Shown: one piece after another, positions 10,487-15,458 of the stretch
How positions within the stretch are numbered: the first letter of the stretch is position 1
Layout: the number at the start of each line of letters is the position of its first letter
NCBI RefSeq assembly: GCF_029240215.1
Contig: NZ_JARBTK010000005.1
Coordinates: 19,813 to 83,812, forward strand
Reading direction: 5' to 3'
Length of the DNA stretch: 64,000 bases
DNA from: Chryseobacterium sp.
GTDB lineage: Bacteria; Bacteroidota; Bacteroidia; Flavobacteriales; Weeksellaceae
Notes under the pieces: generated by a model
Seen by the model: the letters and a program-made list of their open reading frames with translations, nothing else
Database searches by the model: none
Told to the model about the DNA's origin: nothing
Program-made: the position numbers and the translations under genes

Positions 10487-10621
10487 CATCATCAAAATAA
10501 AACAATACTAAAATTTTGAAAACAGATTTTAGTCAAAATATCAGGCAAGTCTTGTTGAGTGTTTCTGTATAGCACCATTGCAGGAGATTTTGTTGAGAAA
10601 CATTAATTTTTTCTGTTCAAC

Positions 10622-10919
10622 TTGATTTGAAGGTTTCAGGAGTTTGCCAAAAAACTTCTACCATGCGCTATGGGTCGAAGGTTCGAATCCTTCTATTTCC
10701 GTTAGGGAATATAACTCAGTTCGGTTAGAGTAATAGCTTTTTTGGATGCGAGGGTTCGACTCCCTCCCTCACTTCGGATGAGGTAGCTCAGTTGGTTAGA
10801 GCACTACACTTTTAATGTAGGTTGAAATAGACTCAAAATCTATTTTTAGTTAGAGCTTGAATATCTCGTTAAAAATATTCACCATGGAAAATTTGAGTTT
10901 TTTTCAGTTGTTGAATCAA
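10622..10919 (+). ncRNA. Yrl-like RNA with two circularly permuted tRNA modules
   Basis: T arm-closed acceptor-D arm order at 10667-10737 and 10750-10820; outer TTGATT/AATCAA stem; ends approximate. Confidence 0.65.
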
Positions 10920-11268
10920 CATTTTGAAAAAGCTTGTAAGAAAAGATTTTTTCTGGAAATAAAATTTACTTTATGAGTAGTCAATAATTGGACTGAATTT
11001 TCTAAGAAGGACGATTTTCCGCGTGAGCGATGGTAACGAATATCCTTTTTTGTTTGCAAAAAAGATAGAAGTGAACGTAGCGACCCGAGTTGTTGCTTTC
11101 AGCGATGGCAAGGGACACGCCCAGGATCTGATTCATTAGAAAATAAGTTTAAGAATACTATTCTGAAATGAATGGAATTTTGTGAAAAACTTTCCTTCCG
11201 CCATTTTTGGAAGAGAGAATCTCGAATTTTTCTTTTTTAATTAAAATTAATAACACTTAAAATAAAAT

Positions 11269-12369
11269 ATGATGTTTAAAAATGTACAAATTAAAGCGTA
11301 TCAGATTGGTTTAGTTTTCAAAAACCGAAACTTAATTGAGATCTTAAAAGAGGGTAATCATTGGATTTTTGGGAATAAATCTGTGGAAATTCATGAAATG
11401 AAAAACCAGTTTACAACGACTGAAGACCTGAATCTTTTATTGAAAAATGAAGGTTTGAATTCAATGTTGGAAGTTGTTGACGTAAAAGATGGTGAAATCG
11501 TTTTGGTACAGGAAAACGGAATCTTCAAAGAAGTTTTGAATGTTGGCCAGTATGCTTTCTGGAAAGGTGTTTTGAATAGAGAATTTCAAAAAGTTGACTT
11601 AACGAAAGTCGAGATTACAGAGAAAATCTCCAAAACGATCTTAGAAAATATGAAGTTGAAAAATTTCACAAGAAAGTTTGTGGTGACGAATCAATATAAA
11701 GGATTATTGTTAATTGACGGAAAATTAACCAAAGTTCTGGAAGCCGGAACTTACTATTTCTGGAACAACGAAATTTCTCTTGAGGTAAAAGCCATTGATA
11801 CGCGTACGCAACAAATGGAAATTGCAGGTCAGGAACTTTTAACGAAAGATAAAGCGATGCTTCGTATCAATTTCTATGTGCGTTTTCAGGTGGAAAACAT
11901 TGAAAAAGCCTTGATGGAAAATAAAGAATATGATAAGCAATTATATATTTTGATGCAATTGGCTTTACGTGAGTTCGTTGGAGCTTTGACATTGGATGAA
12001 TTGCTGGTGAAAAAAGATTCTGTAGGAAAAGAAATCCTTGAAAATCTTGGCAATAAAGCCGAAGATCTTGGTCTGAAAGCTTCTGACGCGGGAATCCGTG
12101 ACGTGATCCTGACCGGAGAAATGAAAGAAATCATGAATCAGGTTTTGATCGCCGAGAAAAAAGCTCAGGCCAACAGCATCATGCGTCGTGAGGAAACGGC
12201 TTCCACAAGAAGTTTGTTGAACACCGCAAAACTGATGGAAGAAAACGAAGTCTTGTGGAAACTGAAAGAAATGGAATATATGGAGAAAATCGCCGACAAA
12301 ATTGGAGATATCACCGTTTCTGGAAACAGTAATATCCTTTCTCAGCTGAAAGAGATCTTTGCAAAATAA
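11269..12369 (+). CDS. Slipin family SPFH/Band-7 protein
   Basis: GQELLTKDKA.LR.N, ALREFVG.LTLDELL, IRDVIL.GEMK, RREETASTRSLLNTAKLME. Confidence 0.9.
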   Translation: MMFKNVQIKAYQIGLVFKNRNLIEILKEGNHWIFGNKSVEIHEMKNQFTTTEDLNLLLKNEGLNSMLEVVDVKDGEIVLVQENGIFKEVLNVGQYAFWKGVLNREFQKVDLTKVEITEKISKTILENMKLKNFTRKFVVTNQYKGLLLIDGKLTKVLEAGTYYFWNNEISLEVKAIDTRTQQMEIAGQELLTKDKAMLRINFYVRFQVENIEKALMENKEYDKQLYILMQLALREFVGALTLDELLVKKDSVGKEILENLGNKAEDLGLKASDAGIRDVILTGEMKEIMNQVLIAEKKAQANSIMRREETASTRSLLNTAKLMEENEVLWKLKEMEYMEKIADKIGDITVSGNSNILSQLKEIFAK

Positions 12370-12427
12370 AACTAATAATCATTACTATAAAGGTGGGCTT
12401 CTGTAAAAAGAAGCCTGCTTTACAAAC

Positions 12428-12619
12428 AGCCTTGTAGCTTAAAAGGAAAAGCCTACGGCAAAATATTGCTTACCGTAGAGTTTGCGGATATTCCGGTTAG
12501 ACGTGCGCGGACTAATGGGTAGAGTTTACAGAAGCACCGAAAATCTTAGGAGAAGTAGGGAAGCGTATTTACAGCCGCAATGCCAATAGGGAATGTGAGT
12601 TCGAATCTCATCAAGGTTA
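12428..12619 (+). ncRNA. 192-nt tRNA-shaped RNA with a ~100-nt inserted domain
   Basis: Acceptor AGCCTTG/CAAGGTT, D arm GCTT/AAGC, T arm GTGAG-TTCGAAT-CTCAT; no canonical anticodon loop. Confidence 0.7.
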
Positions 12620-12627
12620 CAAAAAAT

Positions 12628-12659
12628 GACAGATCTAAATTTTAGATTTGTCTTTTTTT
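12628..12659. terminator. Terminator between convergent units
   Basis: GACAGATCTAA/TTAGATTTGTC stem, T run after and A run before. Confidence 0.7.
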
Positions 12660-13408: not shown

Positions 13409-13470
13409 CATAAGAAATCAGAGAGGAAGTGATAATCCTCCAAAAATGTTTAACAAAAAAAACAGTAACC

Positions 13471-14987
13471 ATGAAATTTAATTTTTTAAGAAAAGAGAAT
13501 AAAGTAGTCATGAACTACGAAGGTGCAAAAGCTTATACAATGAAACCTGCAGAAGAACTATACAGTGCTGTTGTTACAACAGGATTATCAAACGCAACCT
13601 ATGAAAAGGGAAATGACAGATTGGCGAGAATCCAGTCTCTGATTCAGAAAAACGATCCTGAATTCGTTGCAAAATTGGCGGTTTATGCAAGAAAAGATAT
13701 GTATTTGCGTTCAATTCCGTTGGTTTTGACGACCGAATTAGCGAAACAAACTTCAGGTACTGACTTGGTAAGCAGAACCGTTGACGGAGTGATTCAAAGA
13801 GCAGACGAAATCACGGAATTGTTGGCATATTATCAATTAGCCAACGAAAGAACAGAAACAAAAAAGCTGAACAAACTTTCAAAACAAATTCAAAAAGGTT
13901 TGGTAAAATCCTTCAATAAATTTGATGAATACCAATTCGCAAAATACAACAGAAAAGCTGATGTTACGTTGAAAGATGCCTTGTTCTTGGTTCACCCAAA
14001 AGCAAAAGACGAAAATCAACAAGCAATTTTCAACAAAATCGTCAATGATTCGTTGGAAACTTCATATACTTGGGAAGTTGAACTTTCGGTTTTAGGTCAA
14101 ACAAAATTTGCTAATGATGCGGAAAGAAAATCAGCTTTCAAAAACAAATGGGAAGAATTGATTTTCAGTAACAAATTGGGTTATATGGCAACGTTGAGAA
14201 ACTTGCGAAACATCATAGAAGCGAACGTTTCTTCAGACGCGATGTACAAAGTATGCAACTATTTGTCGGATGAAAAAGCAGTGAGAAATTCAAAACAATT
14301 GCCATTCAGATTTTTGGCGGCGTACAGAGAATTGAAAACGATCGATTCACCTTACTTGTCATCAATCTTAGAAGCATTGGAAGATGCGGTGATGGTGAGT
14401 GCGAAAAATATCAAAGGTTTTGGTTTCGATACTTCAGTTGTGATCGCAGCAGACGTTTCCGGTTCGATGCAACAGCCGGTTTCTCCGAAATCTAAAGTTT
14501 TGCTGTACGATATTGGTTTGTTGATGTCGATGATGTTGCAGTCACAGTGCAAAATATGATTTCAGGTATGTTTGGTGACCGTTGGAAGAGAGTTCCGATG
14601 CCTAAAAACGGGATATTGAGAAACGTTGATGCGTTCTACAAAAGAGAAGGTGAAGTTGGTTACTCCACAAATGGTTATTTGGTGATCGAAGATTTGATCA
14701 GAAAAAGAGAAAAAGTGGATAAAGTAATGTTGTTCACCGATACTCAGCTTTGGGATAGCAATGGTGGTAGAAATTCTTTTGAAAATTCTTGGAATCAATA
14801 CAAAAGTTTCAATCCAAATGCAAAATTGTATATTTTTGATTTGGCAGGTTACGGAAAACAACCGTTGGATGTCAGAAAAAATGATGTATATCTTATCGCG
14901 GGTTGGTCCGACAAAATTTTCGATGTACTGAATGCTTTGGAAGACCGAAAATCATCGGTAGCAATAATAAAAAAAGTAGTGCTGTAA
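13471..14987 (+). pseudogene. rsr: Ro60/TROVE-vWA RNA-binding protein with a -1 frameshift at the A run 14551-14554
   Basis: NYEGAKAY, YARKDMYLRS.P, MATLRNLRN, LPFRFLAAY, MIDAS-like DVSGSM; adding one A gives ...QCKNMISGMF and joins both ORFs. Confidence 0.85.
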
Positions 14988-15034: not shown

Positions 15035-15152
15035 GCTATTTCCCGCTTGGAATTTATGCTGAGCGAAGTCGAAGCACAGCACTATATCTTTTTCTCCAAC
15101 GCTTTTTTTCCAACGCCAATTCAGAAAAAGGATGCCGTTTCAATCAGGGCTA
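15035..15152. repeat. Dispersed repeat family 2 (second copy ~39625-39727)
   Basis: GCTATTTCC..C...AATTTAT.CTGAGCGAAGTCGAAG...GGGCT shared; ends approximate. Confidence 0.6.
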
Positions 15153-15177
15153 TAAGGAGACAATGTTTAACTAACAG

Positions 15178-15265: not shown

Positions 15266-15274
15266 CTAAAAAAT

Positions 15275-15346
15275 AACCGATGCCGTAAGAAAAGAAATCC
15301 TTCGACTTCCAATTGAAAAATGAGTCTTTTCGCAAATTGCTCGGTT
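15275..15346 (+). ncRNA. Y-RNA-like unit A (minimal)
   Basis: AACCGA[T]GC-CGTA ... GC-TCGGTT; ATCCTTCG box. Confidence 0.6.
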
Positions 15347-15352
15347 TTAAAT

Positions 15353-15437
15353 AACCAATGTCGTTACCATAAGAGTTCCATCGATCAAACTTATAACTTG
15401 AACAACATTCAAAACTCTTATAACCTGTTACTTGGTT
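15353..15437 (+). ncRNA. Y-RNA-like unit B (minimal)
   Basis: AACCAA[T]GT-CGTT ... AC-TTGGTT; TTCCATCG box. Confidence 0.6.
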
Positions 15438-15458
15438 TTCATTTAAAATAATTTTAAC

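Follow-up and report, generated by a model that had tools for sequence, protein, structure and literature searches.

What kind of RNA is encoded behind the slipin gene of Chryseobacterium sp. (NCBI RefSeq assembly GCF_029240215.1), and what does it do? The stretch of DNA analyzed here, referred to as the window, covers 64,000 nucleotides (nt) of contig NZ_JARBTK010000005.1 (positions 19,813 to 83,812, forward strand), and all coordinates given below without a contig or locus name are those of the window. The element in question lies at 12428-12622 and was originally proposed, from its sequence alone, to be a mimic of transfer RNA (tRNA) that carries a cargo domain and belongs to no assignable class. 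In this work, we found that the first part of this proposal holds. The element encodes a full, non-permuted tRNA body in which a hairpin (hairpin A) and a three-way junction of ~100 nt replace the anticodon arm; the insert is structured and conserved, and conservation is sharply bounded at the ends of the tRNA frame. With covariation in every helix, the RNA is a candidate for a new Rfam family. As for its class, this could be narrowed to the tRNA mimics of RNA-repair systems.

Covariation was evaluated in an alignment of 96 sequences with 47 pairs, using 500 shuffles and a control in which the pairing partners were slid. Standard pairs are formed in 95.9% of the alignment cells, compared with 78% after shuffling and 32-42% with slid partners. 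Two-sided changes occurred in 34 of the 47 pairs, and none of the 500 shuffles matched any of these measures. Every helix has compensatory changes, including three helices that the original prediction did not contain. The parts of the RNA, with counts from the same alignment, are as follows (bp, base pairs).

12428-12622, forward strand: entire tRNA-framed RNA gene, 192 nt up to the discriminator base, followed by a CAA trailer.
12428-12434, forward strand: 5' strand of the acceptor stem (AGCCTTG), pairing with CAAGGTT at 12612-12618; 7/7 pairs covary and 98% of cells are paired.
12437-12452, forward strand: D arm, with a 4-bp stem and the loop AAAAGGAA that contains GG, preceded by U8 and A9; 4/4 pairs covary.
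12453-12478, forward strand: hairpin A, with a 6-bp stem (CTACGG at 12453-58 and CCGTAG at 12473-78) and a 14-nt loop that opens with several A in a row; 3/6 pairs covary.
12482-12580, forward strand: three-way-junction domain, closed by helix P1 (TTGCGG at 12482-12487 and CCGCAA at 12575-12580).
12493-12519, forward strand: P2 hairpin, 8 bp plus an extension of 2-3 bp and a pentaloop; 8/8 pairs covary.
12520-12523, forward strand: P2-P3 junction strand UAGA, found in 76/96 sequences.
12524-12572, forward strand: P3-P4 arm, with a symmetric GAAGC/GAAGC internal loop, a CCGAA / AGUAGG module, and a variable tip at 12542-12553.
12583-12591, forward strand: short variable-arm hairpin, with UG on its 5' side and AAU on its 3' side; 2/2 pairs covary.
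12595-12611, forward strand: T arm, with a 5-bp stem and the invariant loop UUCGAAU; 4/5 pairs covary.
12612-12622, forward strand: 3' strand of the acceptor, discriminator A (12619), and CAA trailer.

The 7-bp acceptor stem, the D and T arms, the ACAA ending, the CTACGG/CCGTAG hairpin, and the TTGCGG/CCGCAA helix were all found where they had been predicted. The inventory was incomplete, as the variable-arm hairpin at 12583-12591 and the interior of the three-way junction were missing from it. Also, the ~100-nt domain had been placed in the variable region. Its closing helix is present as described, but a better reading puts the domain at the anticodon-arm position of a class-II-like layout, because the order after P1 is UG, then a short hairpin, then AAU, and then the T stem.

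Hairpin A directly abuts the D stem, which has an 8-nt loop, at a site where tRNAs have nucleotide 26 only. The loop of this hairpin measures 11-21 nt in all members but one and occurs in 74 variants, nearly all of which begin with AAAA or AAAAA; one species (locus L009) has a partial deletion of hairpin A. In the junction domain, 4/6 pairs of P1 covary (e.g., UUGCGG/CCGCAA to GAUUGG/CCAAUC), the strand that follows P1 opens with an invariant A, and 18 variants of the J1/2 strand were found (AUAUU, AUGAU, AAGAU, and others). The P2 extension covaries among loop variants. In the P3-P4 arm, two P3 pairs (97-145 and 101-139) covary and the variable tip ranges from 11 to 44 nt across the family; the strand that closes the three-way junction is AG. 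The variable-arm hairpin outside of Chryseobacterium usually has 3-5 bp and a GNRA cap. Based on knowledge of RNA three-dimensional motifs, we take the GAAGC/GAAGC loop to be tandem sheared G-A pairs and the CCGAA / AGUAGG module to be a loop-E/bulged-G motif. Both kinds of motif are typical protein-binding sites.

Near-invariant positions among the 96 sequences include U8, A14, G18G19, A21, and those of the T loop, which indicates that the tRNA elbow is under selection. The acceptor-stem sequence varies across the family, and the tail is ACAA in 60 and ACCA in six sequences. Consistent with the original prediction, the G3-U70 pair is absent: pair 3-70 is C-G in the window and, across the alignment, C-G in 79, U-A in 10, and U-G in four sequences. 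The best-conserved portion of the RNA is the junction-domain insert; it is thus not pseudogene junk.

The gene is present as a single copy in this Chryseobacterium genome. Among the 20 Chryseobacterium homologs, the conserved stretch runs exactly from the first acceptor base to the ACAA tail, and the flanks are wholly diverged. The distance from the slipin stop codon to the RNA is 59 nt, and both flanking structures that had been predicted are present.

~12393-12419: hairpin upstream of the RNA and 3' of the slipin stop codon.
12628-12659, forward strand: intrinsic terminator (hairpin at 12628-12652 plus T-run), which begins 6 nt 3' of the RNA.

No open reading frame (ORF) of at least 50 codons overlaps the element on either strand. 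The sole ORF within it (25 codons) is disrupted across homologs by 1- and 8-nt indels in the variable tip, and therefore the RNA is non-coding. ARAGORN made no call of a tRNA or transfer-messenger RNA (tmRNA) on the element. A search of Rfam 15 with gathering scores and at E<=10 returned no match of any kind on it, including tRNA, tmRNA, and introns; it was thus assigned to no known family or intron-containing tRNA, and the predicted lack of group I motifs agrees with this silence. A canonical tRNA can be rejected: the features of the body (acceptor, D and T arms, U8, A14, G18G19, and UUCGAAU) are present, but a 5-bp anticodon stem with a 7-nt loop is not.

BLAST searches identified full-length homologs with 87-99% identity in 20 of 201 Chryseobacterium genomes, and remoter copies were found in two other genera of the same family. 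With a covariance model (R1) built from these copies, a second family of the order proved to hold additional ones, which scored 213, 206, and 143 bits. A 21-nt pattern from the best-conserved block occurs in at least 120 species records from five orders of Bacteroidota, namely, Flavobacteriales, Chitinophagales, Cytophagales, Sphingobacteriales, and Bacteroidales. All of the 80 loci fetched have R1 matches; three are clipped by the end of the locus, and the other 77 are full length (180-216 nt) and carry both the tRNA frame and the inner domain. The 21-nt pattern was not found in viral contigs, and the phage collection has no match for the window element. A phage origin was rejected on these grounds, the window being part of a Chryseobacterium chromosome. 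One locus (L098; CALRQL020000003.1) is labeled as a metagenome-assembled genome of Agrobacterium sp. and carries the RNA with WYL and TROVE neighbors. This is probably a mis-binned Bacteroidota contig, with lateral transfer as the alternative. A literature search, in which the original description of b7a-tRNA (Burroughs and Aravind, 2016) was outside the comparison, found no description of this 192-nt RNA.

The RNA is always found in an RNA-repair neighborhood (divergent WYL regulator, boxed promoter, RtcB, RlaP, slipin, Rsr, and YrlA-like RNAs), but its place there differs among lineages. In nine other Chryseobacterium species, it lies between a promoter with a TRCGYA-N7-TGCGYA box and an rtcB paralog, with rlaP genes next, and a divergent HopJ gene and a WYL regulator are located upstream of the boxed promoter. 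The genome of the window has the same arrangement of boxed promoter, divergent HopJ gene, and rtcB2-rlaP elsewhere (locus L077; contig C14, ~784.6-787 kb), where rtcB2-rlaP follows directly without the RNA. In most Bacteroidota outside of Chryseobacterium, the RNA is upstream of the slipin gene or adjoins rsr. The location at the end of a slipin operon, which was part of the original prediction, is therefore correct for the window but lineage-specific. Across Bacteroidota, the 8-kb loci (n = 77) contain the following neighbors.

WYL regulator: 33/77 loci, usually 100-300 bp upstream and divergent.
Slipin: 29/77 loci, usually 600-900 nt downstream.
RtcB: 23/77 loci.
TROVE: 17/77 loci, sometimes at a distance of 70-112 nt (several Flavobacterium and Ferruginibacter loci).
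RlaP pairs: 11/77 loci.

WYL domains are described as ligand-binding domains of regulators. The box occurs within 200 nt upstream of the RNA in 41/92 loci, compared with 8/92 in a downstream control, and its start is mostly 46-67 nt ahead of the RNA 5' end. This position suggests that the RNA is often the first item transcribed from a regulated promoter. The RNA is a trans-acting product rather than a leader, because its structure is kept in at least four different positions relative to its neighbors and because a terminator and a convergent gene come after it in the window. Furthermore, one and the same boxed promoter drives rtcB-rlaP whether the RNA is absent, as in the genome of the window, or present, as in sister species.

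Several other observations were made in these loci. Between the RNA and the slipin gene, YrlA-like RNAs are present in several of them. In 11 loci (Flavobacterium loci L090, L096, L121, L122, L130, L137, and others), the interval that separates the RNA from the WYL gene holds a divergent gene, at 83-91 nt upstream of the RNA, for a 203-amino-acid (aa) protein without a Pfam family. In Flavobacteriaceae and other taxa, the family is adjoined by other long RNAs (116-176 nt) that have a full tRNA frame and an ACAA tail but differing inserts (L083:6495-6652, L115:5686-5844, L122:1414-1533, L090:4343-4463, L154:6629-6804, and others). Several of these inserts contain Y-RNA-like GUCAAU or GUCGUAGA ... 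ACUUCG modules. These RNAs point to a wider class of cargo-bearing tRNA frames.

Within Chryseobacterium, TROVE genes are not enriched, as they are present in 17/20 RNA-bearing genomes and 148/201 overall, and are lacking in three complete RNA-bearing genomes (G107, G124, and G189). The slipin ortholog is enriched (16/20 RNA-bearing genomes vs. 57/181 others; 73/201 in total), where related genomes are not independent, and is lacking in four of the RNA-bearing genomes (G001, G030, G124, and G125). In G124, which is 100% complete, the RNA lies ahead of rtcB2, and the genome has no TROVE gene and only an SPFH paralog with 23% identity. RtcB2 is found in 197/201 genomes and is uninformative for co-occurrence. 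Because TROVE or slipin is missing in some RNA-bearing genomes, the only constant companions of the RNA are the RtcB/RlaP enzymes and the boxed promoter together with its WYL regulator. The RNA is thus predicted to be independent of Ro60 and slipin. For the slipin protein, a search toward other phyla returned Chryseobacterium sequences only. In ~20 species (G137, G147, G188, G153, G143, and others), the slipin ORF has ~505 aa and was matched twice by the query (residues 1-178 and 42-366), which points to a putative internal duplication of the N-terminal part.

In the window, two protein-coding genes flank the RNA on the same strand.

11269-12369, forward strand: slipin (SPFH/Band-7) gene, upstream of the RNA (Pfam Band_7, 3.8e-26).
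13429-14987, forward strand: rsr (TROVE/Ro60) gene, downstream of the RNA (Pfam TROVE); a frameshift near 14551 splits the gene in this assembly.

The rsr gene begins 807 nt from the RNA. According to tblastn, residues 12-376 of the protein of a relative are encoded in frame 1 and residues 376-515 in frame 3, whereas rsr genes in relatives are single ORFs of 506-545 aa. For the split gene, which lies beside an RNA that is 99% identical to those of relatives, there are three possible explanations: decay to a pseudogene, a programmed frameshift, or an error in the assembly. These genes are part of an island. It comprises a tRNA array; genes for an RNA ligase of the Rnl2 type, a metallophosphoesterase, and two exonucleases similar to RNase T; 0.9 kb of non-coding DNA in which permuted tRNA mimics and a Flavo-1-like element are found; the slipin gene, followed by the RNA and a convergent VOC gene; and rsr along with an array of Y-like RNAs. 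Within the non-coding region, two YrlA-like permuted tRNA modules (32.9 and 23.2 bits) and a tRNA-like element (Rfam, 38.6 bits; no ARAGORN call) are located at 10500-10860, upstream of slipin. The region upstream of slipin (10500-11270) is a likelier counterpart of the published b7a-tRNA than the 192-nt RNA is. Sub-threshold matches to the Flavo-1 motif were found directly upstream of the slipin gene (11013-11089, forward strand; 33.3 bits) and directly downstream of rsr (15063-15155, reverse strand; 29.6 bits), with a gathering score of 42. This orphan motif may belong to the same RNA-repair regulon.

The 3' end of the RNA is informative about its maturation. RNase P, 3' tRNA-processing nucleases, and the CCA-adding enzyme recognize a 7-bp acceptor together with an intact elbow. 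In this genome, CCA is encoded in only 6/53 tRNA genes, and most end with N73-C and a trailer rich in A or T. This organism thus depends on CCA addition for 3' maturation. The ACAA tail of the RNA is of the same kind as the trailers of CCA-less tRNA genes. The original prediction had treated the A-CAA ending as a likeness to the tRNA array of the island. The ending is there, but it is not special to the array, as N73-C-AA or similar A-rich trailers are found in 12/15 of the array genes and about half of the tRNA genes elsewhere. In Mycobacterium smegmatis, YrlA undergoes RNase P cleavage and CCA tailing in vivo (PMC4201824). With this precedent, the intact acceptor, the invariant elbow, and the trailer of CCA-less type make a tRNA-type maturation of the RNA (RNase P, 3' nuclease, and CCA addition) plausible.

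Among known systems, the closest relatives could be narrowed to the tRNA mimics of RtcB/Ro60/Band-7 repair systems, namely, YrlA and the predicted b7a-tRNA. The latter was predicted by Burroughs and Aravind (NAR 2016) and is experimentally unvalidated according to Wang, Chen, Wolin and Xiong (bioRxiv 10.1101/312249), where b7a-tRNA and YrlA are said to support the idea that tRNA-like molecules aid RNA ligation. In the same source, b7a-tRNA is a predicted tRNA-like RNA found by a Band-7/SPFH gene and RtcB, occasionally with rsr, and the 192-nt family is likewise near slipin (29/77) and RtcB (23/77). However, b7a-tRNA is described there as "strongly resembling an authentic tRNA," whereas the present RNA, compared by this description only, has 192 nt with a 100-nt junction domain and is negative in tRNA finders. 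It also occurs in slipin-less genomes (4/20 RNA-bearing Chryseobacterium). YrlA (RF02553) is a tRNA mimic with D-loop/T-loop elbow contacts that is encoded in RtcB/Rsr repair operons. Unlike the 192-nt RNA, it has a permuted and loop-closed acceptor-like stem, and its ends pair into the stem bound by Ro60, with GNCGAA(N)G near the 5' end (PMC4201824); the 192-nt RNA has an open acceptor stem and a closed three-way junction, and the Ro motif is absent from its consensus. The Rfam model RF02553 did not match the RNA in the window or in eight diverse loci, while neighboring RNAs scored 26-50 bits. The RNA therefore lacks the defining features of YrlA.

Other likenesses are more limited. As in tmRNA, an acceptor and a T arm are combined with a free 3' end, and a large non-tRNA domain replaces the anticodon arm, but the 192-nt RNA has a full D stem, lacks G3-U70, a tag ORF, and a pseudoknot ring, and was matched by no tmRNA model. 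As in class II tRNAs, P1 is followed by 2 nt, a short hairpin, 3 nt, and the T stem, and the discriminator is A; it differs in that both a 7-nt anticodon loop and a conserved anticodon are missing, one more helix is inserted between the D stem and P1, and the D arm has 4 bp with an 8-nt loop. The mascRNA of MALAT1 and engineered tRNA scaffolds illustrate that a tRNA frame may excise or stabilize non-tRNA cargo (general knowledge and bioRxiv 10.1101/312249). These are eukaryotic or artificial, whereas here the frame and its cargo are under strong selection in bacteria. The 5S ribosomal RNA (rRNA) also has a three-way junction with a closing helix and two arms, and the CCGA / AGUAGG half of its loop E in Chryseobacterium is letter-identical. 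A kinship with 5S rRNA was rejected, as only this loop-E half is common, the rest is unalignable, and the shared part is a widespread module; a search with RF00001 at E<=1 in two RNA-bearing genomes (G131 and G189) found true 5S genes only. Resemblances to the hairpin ribozyme, the hammerhead, and the K-turn, noted by eye, were dismissed since the junction strands do not fit and Rfam gave no match. A guide or splint role was dismissed as well, as no conserved single-stranded stretch exceeds 4-5 nt.

Taken with some reserve, at a little under an even chance, the best explanation is that the RNA is a trans-acting, tRNA-matured cofactor or adaptor of a WYL-controlled RtcB/RlaP repair regulon, parallel to YrlA and b7a-tRNA and independent of Ro60 and slipin. 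Upon induction of the regulon, the transcript would be cut at the ends of the tRNA frame by RNase P and a 3' tRNA-processing nuclease, and CCA would then be added, as for the many CCA-less tRNAs of the genome. The resulting L-shaped RNA of ~190 nt would present its elbow and acceptor end to tRNA-recognizing repair enzymes. RtcB and the RlaP nucleotidyltransferases are the candidate partners, being the only ones always present, and the invariant junction domain may serve as a protein-binding platform. The RNA would thus assist RtcB-type RNA repair in trans, as its cofactor or adaptor; tRNA-like RNAs have been proposed as contributors or cofactors to RtcB ligation (bioRxiv 10.1101/312249).

Several points weigh against this explanation. 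The folding energy of the single sequence is not better than that of shuffled sequences (z = -0.22), so the structural case must be comparative and not thermodynamic. The comparative fold has -35 kcal/mol, compared with -46 kcal/mol for the minimum-free-energy fold, which has a different interior that is without covariation support. Conservation of the 21-nt block in loci L078-L157 is partly ascertainment, as this block was the search pattern; the UAGA junction strand lies outside of the pattern. Furthermore, the family is patchy, with a presence in ~10% of Chryseobacterium species and in 3/150 sampled genomes of the order (the window's own excluded), which implies that the repair enzymes work without the RNA in most relatives.

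Two other roles within the same regulon deserve attention. The RNA may be a sentinel or decoy, in which the tRNA body is a bait cleaved by invading or stress RNases and the fragments with 2',3'-cyclic phosphate are the WYL ligand, or in which the intact RNA inhibits the nuclease competitively. The position of the gene right behind the WYL-box promoter and beside a divergent WYL gene in many lineages is consistent with such a sensor, and there are parallels in Salmonella, where an analogous operon is induced by tRNA fragments bound to RtcR and YrlA was suggested to be a competitive inhibitor of an anticodon nuclease (PMC7790460). However, the Salmonella YrlA is not cleaved by the nuclease (PMC7790460), the present RNA has no anticodon loop, which is the usual target of tRNA ribotoxins, and its most conserved part is a junction domain unlike any known toxin target. 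A low basal level would also be expected if the regulated promoter is the sole source. We consider this role unlikely, though still worth keeping in view. Of about the same standing, and if anything slightly more doubtful, is a strict Y RNA that Rsr (Ro60) binds and stabilizes through the junction domain and that tethers Rsr to a tRNA-binding effector, as is thought for YrlA. Here the proximity to rsr is suggestive (807 nt upstream on the same strand in the window, 70-112 nt in several Flavobacterium/Ferruginibacter loci, and TROVE in 17/77), and there is a weak likeness between GGUAGAG..UUUAC and the GUCGUAGAG..GUUAC start of the Y-like units at 15270-16320. Against it, the RNA has neither a terminal stem formed by its ends nor GNCGAA(N)G, the proposed Rsr site (PMC4201824), and the Rfam YrlA model misses it yet detects sub-threshold YrlA-like RNAs right beside it. 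The occurrence of TROVE (17/20 vs. 148/201 overall), the three complete RNA-bearing genomes without it, and the frameshifted rsr of this assembly also disagree with an obligate Ro60 partner.

Three explanations that take the tRNA frame more literally are much less probable. In one, the RNA is the precursor of a stress-specific tRNA, and the 87-nt junction interior (12488-12574) is an intron removed by an endonuclease and sealed by RtcB. RtcB is indeed the tRNA-splicing ligase of archaea and animals and a constant neighbor here, and the order of P1, UG, short hairpin, AAU, and T stem is a class II layout if P1 is taken as the anticodon stem. Yet the strands that flank P1 do not form a conserved anticodon loop (J1/2 has 18 variants), hairpin A is at position 26, where no tRNA has a helix, and the supposed intron is the most conserved part of the molecule. 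There is no bulge-helix-bulge, group I core, or Rfam intron match at E<=10, and the intron mode of ARAGORN gave Val, Ser, Gly, Leu, or nothing across homologs; with such inconsistent anticodons, these calls were rejected as artifacts. The splicing precursor is thus very improbable, and the same can be said of an aminoacylated, tmRNA-like rescue factor, the acceptor end of which would enter damaged or stalled ribosomes while the junction domain replaces the anticodon arm or SmpB. The free acceptor end, conserved discriminator A, and intact elbow would suit this role, and a coupling of RtcB to the ribosome-rescue factor PrfH is described for systems elsewhere (PMC6514570), but G3-U70 is absent (C-G 79, U-A 10, and U-G 4), the unconserved acceptor sequence does not reveal any obvious identity set for a synthetase, and a tag frame is lacking, with the ARAGORN and Rfam tmRNA models being silent. 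The last explanation, a decayed tRNA gene with a junk insert or a cis leader of the downstream gene, can be given practically no weight. It would account for why ARAGORN and the Rfam tRNA model miss the RNA and for its place directly ahead of rtcB in some species, but the comparative data already refute it: across Bacteroidota orders, the insert is near-invariant and all helices covary, the structure is kept in at least four positions, a terminator and a convergent gene follow here, and the rtcB promoter of the same genome works without the RNA.

Returning to the favored reading of a cofactor or adaptor in RtcB/RlaP repair, a more specific version may be considered, although we regard it as a long shot. 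The RNA could define a Ro60- and slipin-independent class of cofactors, in which a CCA-tailed and perhaps chargeable tRNA body delivers the loop-E/junction domain to RtcB/RlaP or to damaged ribosomes, either as a specificity or tagging subunit of the ligation machine or as a sentinel whose cleavage product is the WYL ligand.

To our knowledge, the substrates and cofactors of bacterial RtcB, as well as the role of the accompanying tRNA mimics (YrlA and b7a-tRNA), are largely unknown. The RNA described here is compact, sharply bounded, and extremely conserved, and it combines a free, tRNA-like acceptor end with a separate domain that is seemingly built for protein binding. It persists without Ro60 and without Band-7, and its hosts include culturable and genetically tractable Flavobacterium and Chryseobacterium. 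This RNA family therefore makes the role of tRNA mimics in RNA repair directly testable and provides a natural example of a tRNA scaffold that bears an RNA cargo.

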